A stretch of DNA of 32,000 nt. Source: Dickeya dadantii NCPPB 898. GTDB taxonomy: Bacteria > Pseudomonadota > Gammaproteobacteria > Enterobacterales > Enterobacteriaceae. The notes beneath the pieces are model-generated. The model had not been told where the DNA came from and searched no databases. It saw only the letters and a program-made list of their open reading frames with translations. The stretch is from contig NZ_CM001976.1 of the NCBI RefSeq assembly GCF_000406145.1, forward strand, positions 4,733,677 through 4,765,676, read 5' to 3'. Both the position numbers and the translations under genes were made by a program. The first letter of the stretch is position 1; each line of letters opens with the position of its first letter. Of the stretch, positions 2,566-28,311 are shown piece by piece.

Positions 2566-2797
2566 TGGCGTGATGCCTCCCGCCGACCAGATCGGGTGAG
2601 GGCCGGTGGCGTCGCATCCCATGCCGTGCAACAACGTACCGGCAAACCCCTGTACCGGGAGCGACATAGCAACCGTGTGCTCTGCCGGTACACCGCCAGT
2701 GTAATGTCACGGTAATTTTCGGCGTCAGCGTTATCACCACCGCTGCCGCCTCGCCAGCCTGAAATAGTCGTACCGCTTTTCTTCCATCCTGCGTATT

Positions 2798-2853
2798 CTC
2801 ATGAAAACAACATCATGCAAACAAGATCATGAAAACAGGATCATGAAAACAAT
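2798..2853. repeat. four head-to-tail 14-bp direct repeats (consensus ATCATGAAAACANN) just upstream of the SerC-like gene
   Basis: Units: ctcatgaaaacaac (2798), atcatgcaaacaag (2812), atcatgaaaacagg (2826), atcatgaaaacaat (2840). The period is exactly 14 bp. The array ends about 10 nt before the RBS AGGAG (2863-2867). Confidence 0.9.
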
Positions 2854-2874
2854 ACGAAACCAGAGGAGAAACGC

Positions 2875-4668: not shown

Positions 4669-5316
4669 ATGCTAAAAGAGTCTGTCGCGCTAGCCAAGGC
4701 AGCGGAAACCGGCCGGAAACCGGGGCTGGCTCACACCCTGAAAGACGACGTATACGGCCTGATGCTGGGGGTGATGTTTATTGCGATCGGCCTGAATTTG
4801 CTCAAACTCTCAGGCATGATCACCGGCGGGATTGCCGGCATCGCTTTACTGCTCTCCTACTTTATTCCGCTGTCGATCGGCGTGCTGTTTATCCTCGCCA
4901 ATATCCCATTCATGATTTTCTGCTACTTCAGCATGGGGCGCGCCTTTACGCTGAAAACGCTGATCGTCAATATCGCCCTGAGCGCCGCCACCCAGGCGGT
5001 GCCCGGTCTGCTGACCATCAACTATATCCACCCACTGTTTTCCGCGCTGGTGGGCGGCACCTTTCTCGGCATGGGCATTCTCTCGCTGGCGCGCCACAAT
5101 GCGTCGGTCGGCGGCACCGGCGTCGTCACCCTGTGGCTCTACAAACGCTTCAATATCAATGCCGGCAAAAGCCAGATGCTGCTGGATATGCTGGTGTTCG
5201 CCGTGTCCATATTCACCATGCCCGCTCACCTGCTGCTGTGGTCGGCGCTCAGCGCGCTGGCGATGAACGCCATGCTGATGAACTGGCATAAGCCGGGGCG
5301 GTATCAAGGCGGGTAA
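4669..5316 (+). CDS. YitT/DUF161-like polytopic inner-membrane protein (215 aa)
   Basis: At least five hydrophobic segments with GG-rich motifs (MITGGIAGIALLL, VGGTGVVTL) typical of the YitT family as I recall it. Divergent from the Lrp-family regulator. Its last 52 nt are duplicated at 9870-9921. Confidence 0.55.
   Translation: MLKESVALAKAAETGRKPGLAHTLKDDVYGLMLGVMFIAIGLNLLKLSGMITGGIAGIALLLSYFIPLSIGVLFILANIPFMIFCYFSMGRAFTLKTLIVNIALSAATQAVPGLLTINYIHPLFSALVGGTFLGMGILSLARHNASVGGTGVVTLWLYKRFNINAGKSQMLLDMLVFAVSIFTMPAHLLLWSALSALAMNAMLMNWHKPGRYQGG
5265..5316 (+). repeat. left copy of the 52-bp direct repeat (functional 3' end plus stop of the YitT-like gene)
   Basis: gaacgccatgctgatgaactggcataaGccggggcggtatcaAggcgggtaa matches 9870-9921 at a 4605-bp offset, 50/52 identical. 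Confidence 0.95.
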
Positions 5317-5361
5317 GATGGCGGTGTAATGGTAGCCATCAGGCGAACGGCTATTCCGCTA

Positions 5362-6570
5362 TTACTGAGTTGCATTCAGTAATGCCACAAACTGCTGCCA
5401 TAGCGCGTCAGCACTACGCTCGTACCCTTGCTGGGTAAGATGAATCAAGTCAGGACGTGCAATTCCCTGTTGTTGCCAGCGTTCAATAGCGCAGTCTCCC
5501 CCCATGTAATCAAACCAGTTCCAAAACAGCGTGTGATAGGATTGGGCAACCTCTCGCTGGGCCTGAATAACCGGTTTTAGCAAAGCCGGCTGGAGCTGCT
5601 GGCAAGATGCGCCATTTTTATTGCTGATGCTGCTACCGGGGCCAACCAGCAGAATGACCGCTTCCGGCAACACACGCCTGATAGCCTGTACATATTCGCT
5701 ATAATTTTGCTGATAACGTTGGATATCAAGTTGTTGGTCAAAGGCTTCGTTCGTGCCGTACGCCATGATGACCATATCCGGCTTCAGCATTTGTAACGTG
5801 GATAACCAGTTATCGCGCCATTTATCCAGCATGGAAACCCGGGCGCCGTTGATACCAAGCGCACTCAACATGACGCCACCGCTGTTACTGGACGACAGTA
5901 GCCACCCGGCCAGTTGGCTCCCTCCCGAAGGCGCCAGCGAATACCTGACAGGCGACTGGACAGTCACCGGCTGGCTCAATGTCCAGCGGGACTGACTGCA
6001 TGGCAGAACAACCGTCCGATGCTGGATCTGTATCTTCCCGTTCGCCTGATTACGATACAGCGCTTGCATTAAAAAGGCCGGGTCAGTGTCACGCACAATC
6101 AGCTCTGCGTTATTATTGTCCTGACGTGGCGTGGCGATATTACCGCCCAATGTAAATCCAGCATTCGTGGTTTTTCGACTGGTTATCATGTCCCAGCCTT
6201 TAGCATTGGCGAACAAGACGTTATCAGACCGGTTGCCAGATATTGCCAAAGGACTAATAAAACCGACGCCGCCGTCTCCATACTGCTGTTTAAAATGACG
6301 ACGCAGCTGCCCGGAAAAAAAATCCGACGCGGTATGCGAATCACCCAATTGCAGGATGTGAATCTTTTCTCTATCGCTATGACTTAATTTATATTTGAGT
6401 TGCTGCAACCCTGGATCGCCATAATCGATTAACTGAATCGCATTTCCCCCGGCCACAGGAAACGTAGTGGCTTGAGGAAAACTGTTATTTCCCCGGCCAC
6501 AGGATGTAAGCTGAATCAGACAGAGCGTCATCATCAAACACCTGTTTTTACCCATCATTTTATCTGGCAT
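5362..6570 (-). CDS. SGNH/GDSL hydrolase lipoprotein, Ape1-like O-acetylpeptidoglycan esterase candidate (402 aa)
   Basis: Signal peptide with lipobox LTSC (Cys24). SGNH blocks: GDSH (Ser78), SALGINGA (about Gly239-242), GTNE (Asn274), DLIH (Asp374/His377). A ~150-aa insertion lies between blocks I and II. The spacing closely parallels my recollection of N. meningitidis Ape1 (S80, G236, N268, D366, H369). Its start lies 1 nt after the upstream stop. Confidence 0.65.
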   Translation of the reverse strand: MPDKMMGKNRCLMMTLCLIQLTSCGRGNNSFPQATTFPVAGGNAIQLIDYGDPGLQQLKYKLSHSDREKIHILQLGDSHTASDFFSGQLRRHFKQQYGDGGVGFISPLAISGNRSDNVLFANAKGWDMITSRKTTNAGFTLGGNIATPRQDNNNAELIVRDTDPAFLMQALYRNQANGKIQIQHRTVVLPCSQSRWTLSQPVTVQSPVRYSLAPSGGSQLAGWLLSSSNSGGVMLSALGINGARVSMLDKWRDNWLSTLQMLKPDMVIMAYGTNEAFDQQLDIQRYQQNYSEYVQAIRRVLPEAVILLVGPGSSISNKNGASCQQLQPALLKPVIQAQREVAQSYHTLFWNWFDYMGGDCAIERWQQQGIARPDLIHLTQQGYERSADALWQQFVALLNATQ

Positions 6571-6571
6571 T

Positions 6572-7648
6572 CTAATGAGTTACCTCATTCAATGAGGGCC
6601 TCACGCTTATTTTCGAAAAAATACGTTCGGCAATCATTTTTTGTCCCGTTAGCGAGAAATGAACACCGTCATTAGTGCGGATACGCACTTTCGCCTTATC
6701 CTGTTCCATATCAGGAGAATAGATACTGCTCTGATAGCCAAAAATCTCATTCACCCGAATAGATATTTCATTTTCAGCTTTTACTTCAGACTCAAACAAA
6801 CCATTAATATAATTAACCCCATGATTTAGCTTCTTATTCTCCACATTCGGGGGAGAAACCCATATGACTGGAATCCGTTTTTCACGCGCTAAATTCAGGA
6901 TAGAGCGAATACGGTCACGATACGCGCTCTCCCATGCCGGCGACTCAAACTTCAGGAAATTCTTACCATTGCCAGACGGCATATCCCAGGGATCGTTTGA
7001 TCCTAAAAACACCACCAGCGCTCCAATATCCTGCCGTTTTTCCAACTCATGGCTCAATATTAACGGCCAGTTGAAAAAATGGGGGTACGTCAGGCCAGTG
7101 CTACGTTTACTTAAATCAATCCCCTCCACACTATAGCGATCGCGTAACATTTTAATGACGTGAGGTGCCACCCCTTCCATCATAGAATCACCGATAAAAA
7201 GGACCGCCTGCCCGGCTTTTAATACCACATGGTTGTCCCCAATATTGGTACTGGCAGCACGAGTGGCTGAATTGCCGTCAACATGAGTGTCCGGCTCTTT
7301 GACAGTGGGTGGCAACAACTTTTCCCGGGGAGCGACTGGCCTCGCAGCTTGCCGTGGTGCAACAGGCGCGTCATCAGGTATCGACTGCCGTGCGTTACCT
7401 CCAGGAGCCGATGTCAGGCTCTCTACAAATGAATCTTTGGCTGCCTGTGAGGCTTCCATCAGACGATCACCGAATACCCATGACGGACTGGTGATGCCAT
7501 CCCACGGACTTTTAGTATGAAAATGTAGCTCCCAATAACTATTGATTGATTGCTGATACAACCATATCAACCCAATCATACAACTCAGTATCACAAGCAG
7601 GCTCTTAAAGACCTGAGCCAATATGGTGCGGTATTCAGAAGTTTGCAT
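6572..7648 (-). CDS. membrane-anchored SGNH/GDSL protein, PatB-like O-acetyltransferase candidate (358 aa)
   Basis: N-terminal TM anchor (LLVILSCMIGLIWL) and a Pro/Ala-rich linker with an internal duplication (APVAPRQ / ARPVAPRE). SGNH blocks: FIGDSM (Ser155), TGL, GSND, DGVH (Asp327/His330). The Ser-to-His distance of 175 aa compares with about 172 in gonococcal PatB as I recall. Overlaps the MBOAT gene by 14 nt. Confidence 0.6.
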   Translation of the reverse strand: MQTSEYRTILAQVFKSLLVILSCMIGLIWLYQQSINSYWELHFHTKSPWDGITSPSWVFGDRLMEASQAAKDSFVESLTSAPGGNARQSIPDDAPVAPRQAARPVAPREKLLPPTVKEPDTHVDGNSATRAASTNIGDNHVVLKAGQAVLFIGDSMMEGVAPHVIKMLRDRYSVEGIDLSKRSTGLTYPHFFNWPLILSHELEKRQDIGALVVFLGSNDPWDMPSGNGKNFLKFESPAWESAYRDRIRSILNLAREKRIPVIWVSPPNVENKKLNHGVNYINGLFESEVKAENEISIRVNEIFGYQSSIYSPDMEQDKAKVRIRTNDGVHFSLTGQKMIAERIFSKISVRPSLNEVTH

Positions 7649-9038
7649 AAATAAATCCCGGCACGCCAGAAGGCGAAAACAAGAAAACCAACGCTAAAAA
7701 TGAAAAGATCACGAAAGGCACCAGATACCATTCGAGGCGCCTCAGCGTATTAGCGATAATTTCACGCAGCGTTATTAACGATGGATAGATAATTAATAAA
7801 ACAATAAAACCAGCAATTCCCCACATATCGTTTACCGTCAACTGCGCCACATCTGCTCTGGAGATAACCCTCAACATGAGCAACGCATCATGCACACTGC
7901 CAGCCTTAAAGAAAATCCAGGCCAGACAAACAAAATGAAAGGTGAATAGCCGCGCGATAACGCCAAGTATCGGAATTATTTTTTTCTTCTGACGATACTT
8001 AACCCAGAAATTGTAGAAAATCAAACCAACACCATGTATTCCCCCCCAAATTAAAAAGGTAATACTTGTGCCATGCCAGATACCAGACAATACCATCGCA
8101 ATGAAAATATTAAGCTGCGTATTCCACCATCCCTGACGACTTCCTCCTAACGGGATATAGATATAATCACGAATGAACGAAGACAGACTGATGTGCCATC
8201 TTCGCCAAAAATCCTTTATATTCTCAGCAACATAAGGATGTGAAAAATTTGTGCCTATCTGGAAGCCAAGTAAAATAGCAATTCCTGTTACCAAATTAGT
8301 ATAACCAGAAAAGTTGAAATAAATCTGCCAGGCCCACGCGTAAGTTGCCAATATACACTGCCAGCCAGTATAGTTTTCGGGATCAATGAATACAGAGGAA
8401 ACATAGTTTTCATCCAGCCATTCGTTTAAGCAGAATAACTTGGCTATCGCCAGTGCAATAAGAAACAGAGCCCGTGGCCACTCCGTTAGCTGGCGTGGAC
8501 GTTTTGTCTCTATCTGGGGTAACAGCCTGTCTGCCCGGTTGATAGGGCCGGAAAGAAAGGTGGGGAAAAAGTTCAGATAAAGCAAAGTATTAAAAAAATT
8601 ACTTTGTTTTATCTCTCCTTTTGCAACTGAAACAATCAGGCTAACGGCGTTAAATATATAAAATGATAGCCCAATAGGAAGCAATACATTAAGCACGGGA
8701 AGCGTGACAGCAATATGATACTCACTAAGTGTCATTTGCAAATCATCACGCAAACCTGAGTAATACTTAAACATAACAAAGAAAAAAACAGTAAAAAAAA
8801 TCAACAAATAAACAGAAAGCTTCCTAAATTCAGCATGTGCCGCTAAATTTAAAAGAAAGCAAATACAAGCACTAAACAACAACAATACTGTCAGAGACTG
8901 CCAGCTGGACAACAGAACAAGGCCATAACCCGCCACAAGAAGAATAAGATTCTGTACTTTTATCCAGGGAGATAAAAGCCAGTAAATCAAAAACAAAACG
9001 AGGAAGCAAAAGGAAAATTCGACAGAAATTAAATTCAT
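7635..9038 (-). CDS. MBOAT-family membrane O-acyltransferase (PatA/AlgI/DltB-like, ~467 aa)
   Basis: Polytopic protein with MBOAT hallmarks: FWRRWHISLSSFIRDYIYIPLGGSR and SGIWHG (conserved His). The ORF opens at 9050 (MVILMN...), but the ATG at 9038 (MNLISVEF...) fits the usual MBOAT N-terminus. The start is uncertain by 12 nt. Very AT-rich. Confidence 0.85.
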   Translation of the reverse strand: MNLISVEFSFCFLVLFLIYWLLSPWIKVQNLILLVAGYGLVLLSSWQSLTVLLLFSACICFLLNLAAHAEFRKLSVYLLIFFTVFFFVMFKYYSGLRDDLQMTLSEYHIAVTLPVLNVLLPIGLSFYIFNAVSLIVSVAKGEIKQSNFFNTLLYLNFFPTFLSGPINRADRLLPQIETKRPRQLTEWPRALFLIALAIAKLFCLNEWLDENYVSSVFIDPENYTGWQCILATYAWAWQIYFNFSGYTNLVTGIAILLGFQIGTNFSHPYVAENIKDFWRRWHISLSSFIRDYIYIPLGGSRQGWWNTQLNIFIAMVLSGIWHGTSITFLIWGGIHGVGLIFYNFWVKYRQKKKIIPILGVIARLFTFHFVCLAWIFFKAGSVHDALLMLRVISRADVAQLTVNDMWGIAGFIVLLIIYPSLITLREIIANTLRRLEWYLVPFVIFSFLALVFLFSPSGVPGFIYANF

Positions 9039-9415
9039 TAATATCACCATGCACTTATTAAAAATGCGATTTAGAAATACACTCTTACCCGTTGTTTCAT
9101 CTCCAGAAAATAAAAATAAAATTTAACAAAAACAATCTATCAGGAATGAAAAATAGGATTTTCACCTCACCGAAAATTCACCACGCAAATTGATATCATC
9201 AGGATTAAATCGACTAAAAATTCTACTAAAAAAAAGAAAAAATTAAAGATAACGATGACAATCACATCATCAGACACTTCTGAAAAATAATTACACGTCT
9301 ATTTCCCAGAGTTTCTTTTCATGAAATATCATTGCAGGTTGGCGGCAAATAATTACAAAGTTCTGCGGTGAAAATTACTAAAATTACTCAGGAAACAAAC
9401 AACTTAATAAATGCC

Positions 9416-9757
9416 TATACCCTAAATAATTCGAGTTGCAGGACAACACGCTCGCGTGTTGAACAACGCAACGCGTTGGCCCGTCAGGGCAAGGCTCATT
9501 AAGAGCCTTGTAACGCGGCAAGCGAGTGACAAATTCGTCGGGAACGAATTTGACCAGCCAACGGCTGGCCTCCGGTGAGAGACAGGATGTCTCTCATTTA
9601 ATCCCGATGAGCTTACTCGGGTAAGTGATTCGGGTGAACGACAAATCTGCCGGGAGCAAATTTGAACGCAGCTTGCTGCGGCCCTGAAAGGGCGAGGCCC
9701 AAGGAGGGGCCGAGTAACGCAGCCAACACACCTGCAACTTGAAGTATGACGGGTATA
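9416..9757. repeat. ERIC/IRU element, expanded composite form (342 bp)
   Basis: Canonical ERIC termini are present: tataccctaaataattcgagttgcagg (9416-) and cctgcaacttgaagtatgacgggtata (-9757). The core aatcccgatgagcttactcgggtaagtgattcgggtgaacg matches the ERIC1R/ERIC2 primer regions. The arms are interrupted by extra hairpin-forming inserts. Confidence 0.8.
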
Positions 9758-9869
9758 TACTCAACACATTGCCACCCTCAGCAATCTGGTGGAGTGACCC
9801 AGCATGGTTCCGATATGAAAAATAACGAAATGCTCCGCAGTTATGATTGATGTTCAGCACGTCAACGAC

Positions 9870-9921
9870 GAACGCCATGCTGATGAACTGGCATAAACCG
9901 GGGCGGTATCAGGGCGGGTAA
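9870..9921 (+). repeat. right copy of the 52-bp direct repeat (orphan 3' end of a YitT-like gene, encodes ...NAMLMNWHKPGRYQGG*)
   Basis: Identical to 5265-5316 except 9897 (A vs G) and 9912 (G vs A). Both fall on third codon positions and are synonymous (Lys AAG/AAA, Gln CAA/CAG). Confidence 0.95.
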
Positions 9922-9939: not shown

Positions 9940-10674
9940 CTAGCCATTACCATCGTGGTGTTTCAGAACGATCGAACAGGTATATCGCCCGGCGGGATGA
10001 ATGGAGATGGTCGTTTCAAAGGTTTCGCCGTTGCGATCCAGATAGCGCCGTATGATTTTCAACGCCGGCGACCCGGTTTCCACCCCCAGCTGTTTCGCAA
10101 TCTTGGCCGGCACGCCAACCGCCGTAATGGTCTGGTGTACTTCCTTGCTTTGCACGCCATAGTGATTTTCGATCAAATCGCTGATCAGCGAAAACGGGTC
10201 ACTGCGCACAAGACGCCTGACCTTGTCGTAGGCAACGCTGGCATAGCTGTCCGTCCAGCAAATCGGCGCGTCCGGCTTGATGCTATCTTCCCGAATACTC
10301 GCGATATGCAGCCAACGCGACCCCGGCGGGCAACCAATGATTTGCGACAATTCATAATCGGCGACGATCTCATCAATCTTTTTCACCACCCGCACATTAT
10401 TCCTGGCCAGCGCCAGCAAATCTTCCAGGTTTGCCAGCGGGTGGTTCGTGTTCCCGTTTCTGGCATCGGTGACGTGGGTCCCGGCGCCTTTGCGTCTTGA
10501 GATCAGCCCTTGCTCGGTAAGCTCGCGCAGGGCTTCCCGCACGGTATGCCGGCTGGCCTGATACACCTCGCAGAGCGCCTTTTCGGTCGGGAAAAGTGAA
10601 CCTGCCGGGTACTTGCCGGAAACGATGTCCTGCGCCAGTTCTCGGGCAATCCGCTTATAGAGGGACTCTTTCAT
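9940..10674 (-). CDS. GntR-family transcriptional regulator, HutC subfamily (wHTH plus UTRA effector domain, 244 aa)
   Basis: N-terminal LPTEKALCEVYQASRHTVREALRELTEQGLISRRKGAGTHV is the GntR wHTH signature. The ~160-aa C-terminus is of UTRA-like length and pattern. Divergent from the lyase/transporter pair. Confidence 0.9.
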   Translation of the reverse strand: MKESLYKRIARELAQDIVSGKYPAGSLFPTEKALCEVYQASRHTVREALRELTEQGLISRRKGAGTHVTDARNGNTNHPLANLEDLLALARNNVRVVKKIDEIVADYELSQIIGCPPGSRWLHIASIREDSIKPDAPICWTDSYASVAYDKVRRLVRSDPFSLISDLIENHYGVQSKEVHQTITAVGVPAKIAKQLGVETGSPALKIIRRYLDRNGETFETTISIHPAGRYTCSIVLKHHDGNG

Positions 10675-10756: not shown

Positions 10757-10820
10757 AAATGTCCGTACATTTAAAATATGTCCGGACATTTTCATCACCC
10801 TTATCGGTCGTTACGGACAT
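10757..10820. promoter_or_regulatory. three copies of an ATGTCCG(G/T)ACAT-type palindromic operator (candidate GntR/HutC binding sites) in the divergent promoter region
   Basis: Site 1 AAATGTCCGTACATTT (10757-10772), site 2 the perfect 12-bp palindrome ATGTCCGGACAT (10778-10789), site 3 gttacggacat (10810-10820, opposite orientation). All fit the GT-N(x)-AC architecture of GntR-family operators. A TATAAA -10-like hexamer (10754-10759) abuts site 1. Confidence 0.6.
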
Positions 10821-10882
10821 ACCGTACCGAGACCGTTGTTAGCGGTCAGTCTATCACTAAATCACACCCGGGAGGGGCCACT

Positions 10883-12235
10883 ATGGCATCGAATGTTCTT
10901 GATTCTATTCTGTTCAGGGACTCGTTCGGCACGCCTGAAATGCGCGCCGTCTTTGACGACCATGAATTGATTCGGAAATACGTTGAGGTAGAGATCGCGC
11001 TGGCGAAAGCCGAAGCCCGCTGCGGCGTTATCCCGCAGCAAGCCGCCGACGAGATCGCCAAAACCTGCAACGCCGACACGCTGGATTTCGACCTCCTGCG
11101 CCATGAAACCGAAATCGTCGGCTACCCGATTTTACCGCTGGTCCATCAGATCTCGAAACAGGCCGGGGCATCCGGCGGCTACGTGCACTGGGGCGCGACC
11201 ACGCAGGACATCATGGATACGGCGGTGGTGTTGCAAATCCGCGACGCCTTCGATCTGATTGAAGCGGATATCCGGTCGCTGCGTAACACGCTCGCCGATC
11301 TGGCGCGGCGCTACCGCAATACCCCGATGGCGGGCAGAACCCATCTGCAACAGGCGTTGCCCATCACTTTCGGCTACAAGGCCGCCATCTGGCTGGATAT
11401 GTTTGACCGCCACGCCGAACGCCTCGAACAGGCGCGCCCGCGCATTCTGGTCGGCGAATTCGCCGGCGCCGCCGGCACGCTGGCCTCGCTGGGCGACAAC
11501 GGTCTGGTGGTGCAGAAAGCGATGATGGAAGAGCTGAAACTGGGCGTGCCGACCTCCACCTGGCATGTGGCGCGCGACGGCTTCGCCGAAGCGGTGAATT
11601 TGCTGGCCGTCATCACCGGATCGCTGGGGAAAATCGCCTATGACGTCATGCTGCTGGCCTCCAACGAGTTTGGCGAACTGTACGAACCCTTTGTCAAAGG
11701 CCGCGGCGCCAGCAGCACCATGCCGCAAAAACGTAACCCGATCTCCAGCGAACTGATGCTGGCCTGCGCCAAAGGCGTACGTCAGCACGCCGGCCTCATG
11801 CTGGATGCGATGGTGCAGGATCTGGAACGCGCCACCGGCCCGTGGCATGCGGAATGGATCGCGATTCCGGAAAGTTTCGTGCTGGCCGCCGGCGCGCTCA
11901 ATCAGGCTAAATTCATGCTCAGCGGCCTGATTGTCGACGAACAGGCGATGGCGAAAAACCTCGATATGACCAAAGGGCTGATCGTGGCGGAAGCCGTAAT
12001 GATGGGGCTGGCGCCTTACATAGGTCGGCAAGACGCGCACGACGTGGTTTACGACGCCTGCCGTATCGTCAATACGCAGGGCGGTCGCCTGGCCGACGTG
12101 CTGAACGCCATGCCTCAGGTATCCAGCCGCCTCAAACCGGAATTAATCGAGCAGTTGACGGACCCGGTCAATTACCTCGGCATCGCGCCGGAAATGGTTG
12201 ATCAGGTGCTGGAAAAATCCGCCAAACGGCAATAA
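10883..12235 (+). CDS. fumarate-lyase superfamily enzyme (adenylosuccinate lyase / 3-carboxy-cis,cis-muconate cycloisomerase-like, 450 aa)
   Basis: Superfamily signature GASSTMPQKRNP, HWGATTQDI, and MAGRTHLQQALPITFG. I prefer the ATG at 10883 (GGGAGGGG RBS at 10869-10876). The ORF-track start 10778 lies inside operator site 2 and adds a non-conserved 35-aa extension. Confidence 0.85.
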   Translation: MASNVLDSILFRDSFGTPEMRAVFDDHELIRKYVEVEIALAKAEARCGVIPQQAADEIAKTCNADTLDFDLLRHETEIVGYPILPLVHQISKQAGASGGYVHWGATTQDIMDTAVVLQIRDAFDLIEADIRSLRNTLADLARRYRNTPMAGRTHLQQALPITFGYKAAIWLDMFDRHAERLEQARPRILVGEFAGAAGTLASLGDNGLVVQKAMMEELKLGVPTSTWHVARDGFAEAVNLLAVITGSLGKIAYDVMLLASNEFGELYEPFVKGRGASSTMPQKRNPISSELMLACAKGVRQHAGLMLDAMVQDLERATGPWHAEWIAIPESFVLAAGALNQAKFMLSGLIVDEQAMAKNLDMTKGLIVAEAVMMGLAPYIGRQDAHDVVYDACRIVNTQGGRLADVLNAMPQVSSRLKPELIEQLTDPVNYLGIAPEMVDQVLEKSAKRQ

Positions 12236-12271
12236 CCCCAGCCAATAACCCGTAAGATTGAGGAGATGATC

Positions 12272-13693
12272 ATGTCATCTGATTCATCTAAGGGAAAATC
12301 AATCGTCGCCTTTATGGTTCCCCTGTTATTGGGAACCATAATCTGGTTTTCCCCTGTACCCGAAGGATTAACACCGCAGGCATGGCATATGTTTGCCATT
12401 TTTCTCGCCACCATCGCCGCGATATTAACCCAGCCGCTGCCCTCCGGCGCAGTCATGATTATTGCGCTATGCGTCGTTATTTTTACGCAGACGCTGCCGG
12501 AAGCGAAAGCGCTGGCAGGCTTTTCCAGCGGAACCGTCTGGTTAATCTTCTGTGCGTATATTCTGTCTCTGGGATTCGTCACCTCCGGTCTCGGCAAAAG
12601 AATCGCCTATAAAATGCTGTCGTTATTCGGCGGCAGCAGTCTGGGCATCGCCTATTCATTAGGGGTTTCCGACCTGATTATGGCGCCGGCCATGCCGTCG
12701 GTCACCGCACGCTCAGGGGGCATTATTTTCCCTATCGTGCGTTCCATCAACGAAGTATTGGGTTCTACGCCGGGTGAGTCAGGGAAAAAAATCGGTGATT
12801 TCCTGATCATGGTCTGTTTCCAGTTCACCCCTATAACCGGCGCCATTTTTCTGACGGGCATGGCGGCGAATCCGCTGGTGGGCAGCCTGGCGAAATCCTC
12901 GCTAAATGTCGAAATTACCTGGGGAAGTTGGTTTATCGCCGCGGTAGTACCAGCCATGGTGTGTTTCTGTCTGATGCCGCTGCTGGTCTACAAGCTGCTA
13001 AACCCCGAATTGAAACGCACCCCGGAAGCCAGACAGATGGGGAAACAGGCGCTCGCCGAGCTGGGAACGATGACGCCCGCCGAGAAAAAAGTCGCGCTGG
13101 GATTTCTGCTGGCGCTGATTGGCTGGGGAACCAGCCTGGTTACCGGGCTATCGGCCACCGCCGTTGGGCTGGGTCTTGCCGCCTATCTGTTTGCCTCACG
13201 CGCGGTTGACTGGAAAGCCCTGCTCAAAGACCACGCCGCCTGGGATACCGTCATTTGGTTTAGCGTGATCATCAGCCTGGCCGGCGGCCTGTCCGATTTG
13301 GGTTTCATCAAATGGATGACGGTTAAAATGGGCGGCGCCATTCACGGCTTCGGCGCGATGGGCACGTTTATCTTACTCGGGCTGATCTATATTTACGTCC
13401 ACTACCTGTTCGCCACCGCGACCGGTCACGTCGCCGCGCTGTATGCGCCTTTTGCCGCCACCGCGATTGCCGCAGGCGCGCCCCCGGTCATGGTGGCGAT
13501 ATGCTTTGGTATTTTCAGCAACCTGATGTGGGGAAATACCGAATACGGCGGCGGGCCGGGGCCGATTTATTTTGCTCAGGGCTATTTTGAACGACCGCGG
13601 TTTTACAAAATCAATTTATGCGTGGTGACGGTCAATGTCATCGTGACCTTTGCCGTCGGGCTGGTGTGGTGGAATCTGCTGGGGTATTACTGA
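12272..13693 (+). CDS. DASS-family anion permease (CitT/TtdT-like di/tricarboxylate transporter, ~473 aa)
   Basis: Polytopic protein. The N-terminal pattern WFSPVPEGLTPQAWHMFAIFLATIAAILTQPLP and repeated hairpin motifs (MPSVTARSGGIIFPI, GNTEYGGGPGPIYF) are typical of the CitT/SLC13 family. AGGAG at 12261-12265 favours ATG 12272 over ATG 12266. The gap from the lyase gene is 30-36 nt, so they probably form an operon. Confidence 0.85.
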   Translation: MSSDSSKGKSIVAFMVPLLLGTIIWFSPVPEGLTPQAWHMFAIFLATIAAILTQPLPSGAVMIIALCVVIFTQTLPEAKALAGFSSGTVWLIFCAYILSLGFVTSGLGKRIAYKMLSLFGGSSLGIAYSLGVSDLIMAPAMPSVTARSGGIIFPIVRSINEVLGSTPGESGKKIGDFLIMVCFQFTPITGAIFLTGMAANPLVGSLAKSSLNVEITWGSWFIAAVVPAMVCFCLMPLLVYKLLNPELKRTPEARQMGKQALAELGTMTPAEKKVALGFLLALIGWGTSLVTGLSATAVGLGLAAYLFASRAVDWKALLKDHAAWDTVIWFSVIISLAGGLSDLGFIKWMTVKMGGAIHGFGAMGTFILLGLIYIYVHYLFATATGHVAALYAPFAATAIAAGAPPVMVAICFGIFSNLMWGNTEYGGGPGPIYFAQGYFERPRFYKINLCVVTVNVIVTFAVGLVWWNLLGYY

Positions 13694-13781: not shown

Positions 13782-15134
13782 TTATCGCATAGTCACAAAC
13801 TCTTCCGCCGCCGTTGGATGAATCGCCACCGTGTCGTCGAAGTCTTTTTTGGTCGCGCCCATCTTCACCGCCACCGCAAAGCCCTGCAGGATTTCATCCA
13901 TACCGAAGCCGATGCCGTGCACGCCGACGATTTTCTCTTCCGGCCCCACGCACACCAGCTTCATGCGGCACGGCTGACGGTGCTGCGTCACCGCAGTGTA
14001 CATGGCGGTAAACGCGGACTTATACACCTTAACCTGATCGTCGCCATACTGCTCGCGCGCCTGCGGCTCGGTCAGCCCGACGGTGCCGATCGGCGGGTGG
14101 CTGAACACCACGGTCGGGATATTGCTGTAATCCAGATGCTCGTCCGGCTTGTTGTTGAACAACCGTTCGGACAGACGACGCCCCGCCGCCACGGCGACCG
14201 GCGTCAGCTCAACGGCGCCGGTGTTATCGCCCACCGCGTAGATACCCGGCACCGTGGTGTTCTGGAATTTATCCACCACGATGTAGCCTTTGCTGTTGAG
14301 CGCCACACCCGCCGCATCCAGATTGATCTTATCGTTCGCCGGTTCGCGGCCGATCGCCCAGATCAGGCAATCTACGGTTTGCTCATGCCCGCTTTCCAGT
14401 TGCAGCGTCAGGCTACCGTCGGCGTTTTTCACCACTGCCCTGGGGATAGACTCGGTGTGCAGCCCCGGGCCTTCGGTGTTCATCACCTCCACCAGCGTGT
14501 CCACAATCAGCGGGTCGAACTGGCGCAGCGGCGCGTGCTTGCGCACAAACAGGTGAACCTCGGAGCCAAGCGCGTTCAGCACGCCGGCGATTTCCACCGC
14601 GATATAACCGGCGCCCACCACGGCAACCCGTTGCGGCAGCGCGGTCAGTGCAAAGAAACCATCGGAATCAATACCGTACTCCGCACCGGGAATCGACGGG
14701 CGCGTCGGCCGGCCGCCGGTGGCGATCAGGATATGGTCGGCGGTGATGCGCTCGCCGTTCACTTCCACCGTCTTCGCATCCACGAAACGGGCAAAGCCCT
14801 GAATCACCTCGACCTGATTTTTCCCCAGTACGTTATTGTAAGACTGGTGGATACGGTCAATGTAGGCGCTGCGGTTTTTCAGCAACGTATCCCAGTTAAA
14901 CTGATTGACGGTGACATCAAAACCATAGTCCGGCCCGTAGTGGTGAATGGCTTCGGCAATCTGAGCGGCATGCCACATCACCTTTTTCGGCACGCACCCG
15001 ACATTGACGCAGGTGCCGCCCAGGTATTTGGCTTCGATCAGCGCGCATTTCTTTCCATACATGGCCGCACGGTTGATGGAGGCAATGCCGCCGCTGCCGC
15101 CACCAATGGCGAGATAGTCATAATGTCTGGTCAT
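13782..15134 (-). CDS. gor: glutathione-disulfide reductase (450 aa)
   Basis: Near-colinear with E. coli Gor: [47 protein letters not shown] (redox-active CVNVGC) and a C-terminal [12 protein letters not shown]. Confidence 0.97.
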
Positions 15135-26922: not shown

Positions 26923-28311
26923 TTATGAGGATAAGGTTCGGATTAAATTGGAAAAATCTTCTTTGATGTCGTGACTTTCCTCGCGCAGCTGCTCGATTTT
27001 GCGGCAGGCATGCAACACGGTGGTATGGTCACGGCCACCGAACGCGTCGCCGATCTCCGGCAGGCTGTGGTTGGTCAGCTCTTTGGCCAGCGCCATCGCC
27101 ATCTGACGCGGACGGGCCACCGAACGTGAACGCCGTTTGGACAACAGGTCGGCCACTTTAATCTTATAGTACTCCGCCACCGTCTTCTGAATATTGTCGA
27201 TGGTGACCAGTTTTTCCTGCAACGCCAGCAGGTCGCGCAGCGCTTCGCGCACAAAATCGATGGTGATCGACCGGCCGGTGAAATTGGCGTTGGCGATCAC
27301 GCGGTTCAGCGCGCCTTCCAGCTCACGCACGTTGGAACGCAGACGCTTGGCGATAAAAAACGCCACTTCGCCCGGCAGGCGGATATCGTTTTCGTCCGCC
27401 TTCTTCATCAGGATCGCCACGCGGGTTTCCAGCTCCGGCGGCTCGATCGCGACGGTCAACCCCCAGCCGAAGCGGGACTTGAGACGATCTTCCACCCCGT
27501 TGATCTCTTTAGGGTAACGATCCGACGTCAGGATGATCTGTTGGTTGCCTTCCAACAACGCGTTGAAAGTGTGGAAAAACTCTTCCTGCGAACGCTCTTT
27601 ATTGGCAAAAAATTGGATGTCATCGATCAGCAGTGCGTCTACCGAGCGGTAATAGCGTTTGAATTCTTCGATGGCGTTATTCTGCAACGCCTTAACCATA
27701 TCCTGCACGAAACGCTCGGAGTGCATGTACACCACTTTGGCATTCGGCTTGCGAGCGATAATGCCATTGCCCACCGCGTGCAGCAGGTGGGTTTTACCCA
27801 GACCGGTGCCGCCGTACAGGAACAACGGATTGTAGGCTCCGCCGGGATTGTCCGCCACCTGACGCGCCGCCGCGCGGGCCAATTGGTTGGACTTACCTTC
27901 CACGAAGTTGTCGAAGGTGTGCTTGGGGTTCACGTTGGAGCGATAGGTGTGCTCGGCCGGCGCCGCAGGGGTTTCCCAGCTCGGACGCACCGGCGAGGCG
28001 GCGCGCGCCTGAGGCGCGGGTGCGGCGGCGCTGTGGTGGCCGGTTGACACAACAACAGGCGTCATCGGCTTGCTGCCGACTTCAAAACGCAGCAACGGCG
28101 CATCCATGCCGCAGAAATCATTCAACAGTCCATTGATATTATTGATGTATTTATCGCGTACCCAATCCAGTACAAAACGATTCGGGGCGTAAAGCGCCAG
28201 AGTGTTGTCACTCAGTTCCGCCTGTAACGGGCGTATCCACATACTGAATTCTGTGGCAGGTAACTCATCCTGCAAACGGGCAAGACACTGCTGCCAAAGC
28301 GAAAGTGACAC
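26923..28311 (-). CDS. dnaA: chromosomal replication initiator protein DnaA (462 aa)
   Basis: GTG start at 28311 gives [32 protein letters not shown]..., as in E. coli (which also uses GTG). Walker [12 protein letters not shown] is present, and the C-terminal DNA-binding domain ends ...[11 protein letters not shown]. The 10-codon upstream extension in the ORF track is not conserved. Confidence 0.97.

Follow-up and report, generated by a model that had tools for sequence, protein, structure and literature searches.

The DNA analysed here is a 32,000-nt window of the Dickeya dadantii NCPPB 898 genome (contig NZ_CM001976.1, positions 4,733,677 to 4,765,676), in which a 4.6-kb block of foreign composition lies behind the gene of a YitT-family membrane protein (yitT) and is bracketed by two copies of the end of that gene, the second of which is an orphan. 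The block is a patA-patB-ape1 operon for peptidoglycan O-acetylation (OAP), accompanied by an AT-rich leader and a repeat of the enterobacterial repetitive intergenic consensus (ERIC) type, and it sits in an interval, between yitT and a gor-like oxidoreductase gene, which is hypervariable in the plant pathogen Dickeya. We consider it probable that the repeated gene end is a scar left in a core-gene hotspot by recombination that was anchored by homology and involved one illegitimate joint, after which the orphan came to serve as a homology arm.

The repeated end of yitT and the operon behind it

Direct reading of the sequence reproduced the repeat as it had been described in an earlier reading made from the sequence only, in its coordinates, its spacing and its mismatches: the last 52 nt of yitT (5265-5316, GAACGCCATGCTGATGAACTGGCATAAGCCGGGGCGGTATCAAGGCGGGTAA) recur at 9870-9921, at an offset of 4605 nt, with 50/52 nt identical. 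There are exactly two mismatches (5292 G/A and 5307 A/G), and in the frame of the YitT-family open reading frame (ORF, 4669-5316) both were confirmed to occupy third codon positions and to be synonymous (AAG/AAA for Lys, CAA/CAG for Gln). A pattern search of the window that tolerated up to three mismatches found only these two copies of the 52-mer, 0/100 shuffles matched, and a search of 72,556 plasmid records returned a single match, the chromosomal yitT homologue of an Aeromonas record. The 52-mer is therefore not a dispersed repeat, and the possibility that it might be a common one, raised in the earlier reading, is ruled out.

Between the two copies (5317-9869) the GC content is 44.7%, compared with 58.4% and 58.5% in the flanks, and the GC content at third codon positions (GC3) is 0.42-0.55 for the three genes of the island and 0.69-0.79 for the flanking genes. 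The earlier claim that the block is compositionally foreign to its flanks thus stands, but the range of 30-45% GC given for it by eye underestimates ape1 (50.5%) and the ERIC segment at 9416-9757 (53.8%), the remaining pieces being patB (46.4%), patA (39.5%) and the leader at 9051-9415 (29.9%). As had also been stated, the island lacks mobility genes: no integrase or transposase domain was found among its ORFs with Pfam and NCBIfam, and no tRNA was found in the window. Rfam gave no match inside the island, and promoter and terminator scans performed no better than those of shuffles. We do not regard the 94-aa ORF at 9594-9878 as a gene; it has no family match and overlies both the ERIC element and the orphan.

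Most of the block is taken up by three co-directional minus-strand genes in the canonical OAP order patA, patB, ape1 (Table 1), with patA and patB overlapping by 14 nt and a gap of 1 nt between patB and ape1. Ape1 aligns with the solved Ape1 of Neisseria meningitidis (4k3u; 1.7e-51, residues 42-394), including the GDSHT, GTNEA and D-x-x-H blocks, and PatB with a solved PatB (7tjb; 2e-48), its FIGDSMM and NDGVHF stretches being aligned to the PatB motifs GDS and D-x-x-H. The NCBIfam PatB model scores 7.7e-76 and 255.6 bits, which is under its equivalog cut-off of 580, and the window PatB, judged by this comparison, is a divergent homologue of the sequences behind that model. PatA, the database version of which starts at 9038 and has 467 aa, matches the DltB structures 6bug and 8jem at ~1e-24 and is 100% identical to D. 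dadantii protein P0001. From these homologies PatA is predicted to carry acetyl across the inner membrane, PatB to add it to the C6-OH of N-acetylmuramic acid and Ape1 to remove it, and the operon would be expected to provide lysozyme resistance and control of lytic transglycosylases. The OAP cluster of Neisseria, Campylobacter, Proteus and other Gram-negatives is built of these three proteins, encoded in this order, and a review lists D. dadantii and D. zeae among the species with OAP clusters (PMC6174289). Compared with the described family, however, the window proteins are divergent, and a setting in a swappable core-gene slot is absent from the family description. A related OAP operon (~70% nt identity) was found on a mobilizable IncFIB/IncFII plasmid of Citrobacter portucalensis (NZ_CP134684.1; L059, 5937-9612), where it adjoins alpha-2-macroglobulin and ElyC-family genes and has no yitT context, so the operon also moves on plasmids.

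The remaining 820 nt of the block are made up of the AT-rich leader, a 342-nt ERIC-like repeat and ~110 nt leading up to the orphan. We take 9416-9757 to be an ERIC element, partly on the basis of the ERIC consensus, an imperfect palindrome with conserved ends that is scattered between genes in Enterobacterales. Of the 190 plasmid records returned, most contain dispersed copies that match the right-hand part of the element (~9515-9758). The element is missing from the D. solani locus (L036), and in D. chrysanthemi CP128510 a canonical 127-nt ERIC copy occupies another point of the homologous leader; in the window, it is a secondary insertion. The leader of D. poaceiphila also holds an ERIC-like piece.

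Table 1. Features of the window between yitT and the gor-like gene
Feature	Position	Strand	Basis and remarks
YitT-family membrane protein gene, 215 aa	4669..5316	+	Pfam YitT_membrane 2.3e-31; core Dickeya gene; left slot boundary
Direct-repeat copy 1, functional yitT 3' end including stop	5265..5316	+	Direct reading, pattern search
ape1, O-acetylpeptidoglycan esterase, 402 aa	5362..6570	-	Pfam Ape1_N 9.8e-13, Lipase_GDSL_2 4.4e-17
patB, peptidoglycan O-acetyltransferase B, 358 aa, SGNH/DUF459	6572..7648	-	Pfam DUF459 2.7e-58
patA, MBOAT acetyl translocase, longest ORF 471 aa	7635..9050	-	Pfam MBOAT 4.6e-24 (residues 51-378)
AT-rich leader upstream of patA, presumed promoter region	9051..9415		29.9% GC; homologous region in D. 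solani and D. chrysanthemi
Enlarged ERIC-like intergenic repeat, 342 nt	9416..9757		27-nt terminal inverted repeats at 9416-9442 and 9731-9757
Decayed older part of orphan, yitT positions -85 to -53	9837..9869	+	19/33 identical in register
Direct-repeat copy 2, orphan yitT 3' end, 50/52	9870..9921	+	18-nt spacer, then stop codon of GntR gene
GntR/UTRA regulator, first gene of GntR-lyase-symporter block	9940..10674	-	Pfam GntR 3.3e-20, UTRA 2.2e-14
Lyase_1 gene (10778-12235) and Na/sulfate-symporter-family gene (12266-13693)	10778..13693	+	ORFs; Pfam families from gene tables of matching loci
gor-like pyridine-nucleotide disulfide oxidoreductase, 450 aa, core gene	13782..15134	-	ORF; Pyr_redox_2 in all loci; right slot boundary

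Occupants and scars of the yitT-gor interval

The slot was taken as the interval between the convergent core genes yitT and gor-like oxidoreductase, and the corresponding loci were fetched from many genomes. Orthologues of yitT with 83-100% aa identity were present in all Dickeya species returned, the nearest locus recovered being that of D. dadantii strain 3937 (98.4% identity to the window over 16 kb). Seven occupancy states were found between the two genes (Table 2), and the interval is hypervariable in Dickeya. The GntR-lyase-symporter block that follows the orphan in the window is itself a variable occupant of the slot and has no counterpart there in D. chrysanthemi, D. aquatica, D. oryzae and D. 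zeae; in D. poaceiphila yitT and OAP are present together and the right flank is different. An empty site in which yitT and the GntR gene converge, as had been predicted from the window, exists in D. undicola and D. fangzhongdai, where the stop codons of the two genes lie 1-14 nt apart, and this succession of yitT, spacer and GntR gene is collinear with that of orphan, spacer and GntR gene in the window. In the other genera searched (Brenneria, Symbiopectobacterium, Serratia, Aeromonas and Winslowiella) neither OAP nor gor was found within 8 kb of yitT, and the GntR gene does not adjoin it. An apparent shared motif of ~25 nt, placed immediately behind the stop of yitT in the alleles that are empty or hold DRT3, UvrD or PIN (named below), was noticed by eye only, lies below BLAST detection and was not used as evidence.

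Table 2. Content of the slot between yitT and gor in the loci compared
Genome or species	Occupants
D. oryzae, D. zeae	Slot empty, 155 nt
CP146224, CP146225, CP146227	Fic/PDC-S04 cassette
CP146226	PIN_12 cassette
D. fangzhongdai	GntR-lyase-symporter
Two D. undicola assemblies	GntR only
D. chrysanthemi Ech1591, D. aquatica	OAP
D. dadantii, D. solani, D. dianthicola	OAP, orphan, GntR block
D. dadantii CP110362 (L031)	DRT3, orphan, then OAP, second orphan
D. chrysanthemi CP128510 (L039)	UvrD cassette, orphan, then OAP

Several of these cassettes carry a repeat of the yitT end, though not of one length. In D. dadantii CP110362 a complete 4.6-kb anti-phage system, a defence-associated reverse transcriptase (DRT) of type 3, lies between yitT and ape1 (L031, 13775-18336, CP110362.1; Drt3a 1.6e-129, Drt3b 8e-201), and there are three copies of the yitT end, the middle one homologous to yitT over 66 nt. 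In D. chrysanthemi CP128510.1 (L039, 10649-14893) the cassette encodes a 770-aa UvrD/GajB-like helicase and a 292-aa protein without a family match, possibly an uncharacterised defence pair, and its yitT-end repeat is 232 nt long and 100% identical; the second copy of this repeat is annotated as a 64-aa ORF. The repeat measures 75 nt in D. dadantii JAIZFY01 (L038), and in D. solani the homology spans ~72 nt. Repeat lengths across the site are thus 52, 66, 72-75 and 232 nt, and independent insertions at the yitT end have no constant core or crossover position. No yitT repeat was found with the three-gene Fic/PDC-S04 cassette (CP146224; L042, 10649-13258) or the two-gene PIN_12 cassette (CP146226; L044, 10649-12351), and no orphan was detectable beside the GntR block or the OAP operon of D. 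aquatica. Domain searches of the window island and of the cassettes of the DRT3, UvrD, Fic and PIN types found no recombinase. A perfect repeat of 232 nt must be young, and decay is therefore no explanation for the missing integrase of the UvrD cassette. The earlier suggestion that the window block may be a decayed or trans-mobilised cassette is not supported.

At the right end of the DRT3 cassette there is an internal gor fragment of 311 nt (72% match to window 14189-14574, with internal deletions) which is fused straight to yitT position -66. The gor sequence at the point of fusion is ggagccAAGCGCGttcag and that of yitT is gcgctcAGCGCGctggcgat; both carry AGCGCG, which makes this a 6-nt microhomology joint. 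The identical joint, with 49 nt of gor left, is found in JAIZFY01 to the right of a different cassette, and the gor'/yitT' module has therefore moved with different cargo. Such a joint is the kind of product to be expected of unequal or illegitimate exchange between two alleles of the locus and not of an integrase. The middle yitT-end copy of CP110362 is moreover a hybrid, its left part being of the gor-fused orphan type and its right part (CAA), together with the downstream flank, of the recipient's gene-end type, as is expected of a double crossover for which an orphan provided the homology on the right. No fragments of flanking core genes were found inside the window island or the UvrD, Fic and PIN cassettes, so the evidence from gor fragments is confined to CP110362 and JAIZFY01. 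In CP110362 the gor fragment is annotated as a 111-aa ORF with a weak Pyr_redox_2 match.

The OAP genes occur as two allele classes (A and B), ~65-70% identical. In JAIZFY01 the flanks are 97% identical to the window, whereas the OAP genes show 63-68% aa identity to it and are nearer to those of D. aquatica (73-78%). The genes flanking the window operon are 96-97% identical at the nt level to D. solani and 87-93% to D. chrysanthemi; the corresponding values are 88.8% and 90.5% for patB and 89.3% and 88.0% for patA. Since the identities of the JAIZFY01 operon and of patB are at odds with those of the flanks, the operon has been exchanged at this slot both within and between species.

The orphan of the window is at least 85 nt long and its upstream part has decayed by transitions. 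In the 33 nt preceding the 52-nt copy there are 14 mismatches to yitT, 13/14 of them transitions, and 0/4487 other 33-mers of the island reach 19/33; in strain 3937, 14/15 mismatches of this patch are transitions, and two of its positions differ between the two D. dadantii strains. Divergence shows a step at 9869/9870, from 42% in the upstream 33 nt to 4% in the last 52 nt. The left junction of the orphan (aaaaataacgaaat...) is common to D. dadantii (including strain 3937), D. solani and D. dianthicola, and the insertion is therefore neither recent nor strain-specific.

In D. solani the divergence step is situated ~20 nt further upstream, and the orphan has two D. solani-specific bases in common with that species' own gene copy. 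In D. dianthicola VZQE01000026.1 (L056, 11696-11974) yitT has been deleted and the orphan survives between the GntR gene and patA, much diverged and with an indel; a neighbouring Lrp/AsnC gene is truncated to 53 aa in this locus. D. chrysanthemi probably also carries a decayed orphan at the right end of OAP: the heavily transition-decayed candidate is not significant in a wide search, 13-27/2000 shuffles reach its score within the expected 135 nt, and with a post-hoc transition-tolerant score 0/2000 do so. Functional yitT alleles have, we infer, been the source from which the end of the orphan was copied anew, through conversion or through crossovers that terminated within it, and a recent recopying of the last 52 nt would account for only synonymous differences being seen. 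The proposal that the orphan is the 3' end of an orthologous coding sequence is upheld as far as a duplicated gene end is concerned, whereas for the synonymous mismatches the recopied allele is the preferred explanation.

Two side observations concern the surroundings of the slot. A four-gene cluster (radical SAM, ATP-grasp, 2OG-Fe oxygenase, and a transporter of the major facilitator superfamily) situated between CoA-transferase and aminotransferase genes in strain 3937, D. solani and D. fangzhongdai is absent from the window strain (window 2566-2874), so that a further presence/absence polymorphism exists at a distance of 2 kb from yitT on its left side. An Rfam match to AsdA, an antisense RNA of dnaA mRNA, at window 27736-27816 (86.9 bits) and the annotation of gyrB just past this region in related loci suggest that the window lies in the replication-origin region.

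Origin of the repeat

Homologous capture from a relative, one of the two explanations offered in the sequence-only reading, is close to what the comparative data indicate. According to the explanation that we hold probable, an allele of the locus from another Dickeya would enter by recombination, with the left crossover in homologous yitT and the right end joined illegitimately inside the recipient's yitT 3' region, by homology-facilitated illegitimate recombination, a process reportedly described by de Vries and Wackernagel in 2002, or, equivalently, by an unequal crossover between alleles. The incoming DNA would bring an intact gene end, and the resident end would be stranded downstream as an orphan. 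There is a precedent for this, as series of 3' regions left behind as orphans have been ascribed to such recombination (PMC5361080). Such an orphan would constitute a portable right-hand homology arm, with which cassettes reaching from yitT to the orphan could be moved into other yitT-bearing genomes by two homologous crossovers; this could explain tandem accretion, as where the DRT3 or UvrD cassette precedes OAP, the replacement of alleles, as between classes A and B of OAP, and possibly the loss of cassettes when the two repeat copies recombine. It could also explain a patchy gene conversion by which the last 52-72 nt stay near the functional allele, hence the differences that are synonymous only. 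The first event may have been either the placing of OAP before the GntR block or that of the GntR block behind OAP.

Some observations weigh against this explanation. The sample comprises one or a few genomes per species, and the empty sites of D. fangzhongdai and D. undicola could be ancestral instead of deletions. The joint of the window itself, at ~9836/9837, matches no parent, and no donor flank or microhomology is identifiable there; that this ancient joint arose in the same way as the 66-nt class is suggested by analogy with the latter. Conversion would have refreshed the last 52 nt of the window orphan, for which the evidence consists of the sharp divergence boundary and two co-varying sites only. 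Three unrelated cassettes of ~4.2-4.6 kb placed directly after an intact yitT also resemble targeting. Finally, homology-facilitated illegitimate recombination is rare in experiments (PMC5361080).

Site-specific integration at attL/attR-like ends, the lead explanation of the sequence-only reading, would make the yitT 3' end an attB site used by cassettes with an attP mimic, the tyrosine or serine recombinase having been lost or acting in trans. Repeats located exactly at the gene end, the regeneration of an intact yitT, the existence of empty sites and the presence of three different ~4.2-4.6 kb cassettes, in tandem, at the same place are all in keeping with it, and a crossover between the mismatches of a D. 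undicola-like attB (AAG..CAG) and an attP (AAA..CAA) would yield the observed pair. We nevertheless regard it as quite improbable, because at least six cassette types hold neither an integrase nor its remnant, including the one whose 232-nt, 100% identical repeat is too recent for decay, because the repeat varies from 52 to 232 nt, because a microhomology of 6 nt joins one of the orphans to an internal piece of gor, and because the Fic and PIN cassettes occupy the slot without a repeat; the window, furthermore, has no tRNA. It is very improbable that a trans-acting, unrecognised recombination system shuttles integrase-less cassettes of ~4-5 kb to the yitT end across Dickeya genomes. Were this so, OAP, DRT3 and the helicase defence genes would be its cargo, the end of yitT would be restored at each insertion, and repeats would differ in length because the attP mimics of the cassettes do.

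A close variant of the explanation that we favour is local tandem duplication, in which the region comprising the yitT 3' end, a cassette and gor would be copied in place through unequal exchange at microhomology and the cassettes replaced later, no foreign DNA being involved in making the repeat. The gor'/yitT' joint at 6 nt of microhomology is exactly the novel junction to be expected from such an event, and the cassette alleles are demonstrably replaceable. Nonetheless, the cassettes that flank an orphan are unrelated in every array (OAP and GntR block, DRT3 and OAP, UvrD and OAP), the window orphan has no adjoining gor fragment, and exchange between two different alleles gives the observed structures in one step, all of which makes this duplication unlikely. 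Purely vertical inheritance, with an operon ancestral to this place, an intrinsically low GC content and a likeness of the 52-mers without mechanistic meaning, can draw on the fact that OAP adjoins yitT in the basal D. aquatica and in both main clades and on the conservation of the GC gradient (ape1 > patB > patA). A 50/52 match was never obtained by chance in shuffles, however; GC3 sets the island apart from its flanks, allele classes of 63-68% aa identity coexist in D. dadantii, gene and flank identities disagree, and the slot is empty or otherwise filled in close relatives, so that we see next to no likelihood in this alternative.

Relation to known systems and meaning for Dickeya

Core-gene integration hotspots, whose accessory and defence cassettes are exchanged through homologous recombination in the flanking sequences, are said to have been described by Oliveira, Touchon and Rocha in 2017, and hotspots of defence islands in E. 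coli, reportedly, by Hochhauser et al. in 2023. The Dickeya slot resembles them in its fixed flanks, its many occupants (DRT3, GajB-like helicase, Fic/PDC-S04), the absence of mobility genes and the exchange of alleles across species, and differs from them by its explicit scars, namely orphans of both flank genes and a microhomology joint, from which it can be seen how cassettes are stacked and do not merely replace one another. With integrase islands at the 3' ends of genes or tRNAs it shares regenerating direct repeats, empty sites, tandem arrays and a foreign composition, but it has no integrase, its repeat length is variable, it includes a microhomology fusion with a core gene, and some of its cassettes are repeat-less. 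In the 'C-terminal displacement' arrays of Rhs, contact-dependent inhibition and type VI secretion system effector-immunity loci (Kirchberger et al. 2017, PMC5361080) there is, as here, a conserved upstream anchor gene behind which a new module is placed, the old 3' region is orphaned downstream and arrays build up. In Dickeya, by contrast, the displaced piece is a short, non-functional gene end (52-232 nt) where those arrays have a toxin tip accompanied by an immunity gene, the product of the anchor gene is unchanged, and the cargo is unrelated to the anchor.

The cargo of the window block is therefore a known system, already recorded for D. dadantii, and the process matches known kinds. What is new is a clean and well-scarred example in which a cell-wall operon and defence systems are linked in one slot. 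The locus shows accessory modules being stacked and swapped between two core genes without mobile-element machinery, and it is also a reminder that direct repeats which regenerate a gene end are insufficient as evidence of site-specific integration. A stranded gene end that is reusable as a homology arm may be a general route by which integrase-free defence hotspots grow. For Dickeya itself, peptidoglycan O-acetylation is flagged as differing from strain to strain and from species to species and as having two deeply divergent allele classes, and this variation could alter resistance to lysozyme-like enzymes, to the cell-wall-degrading effectors of competitors and to phage endolysins.

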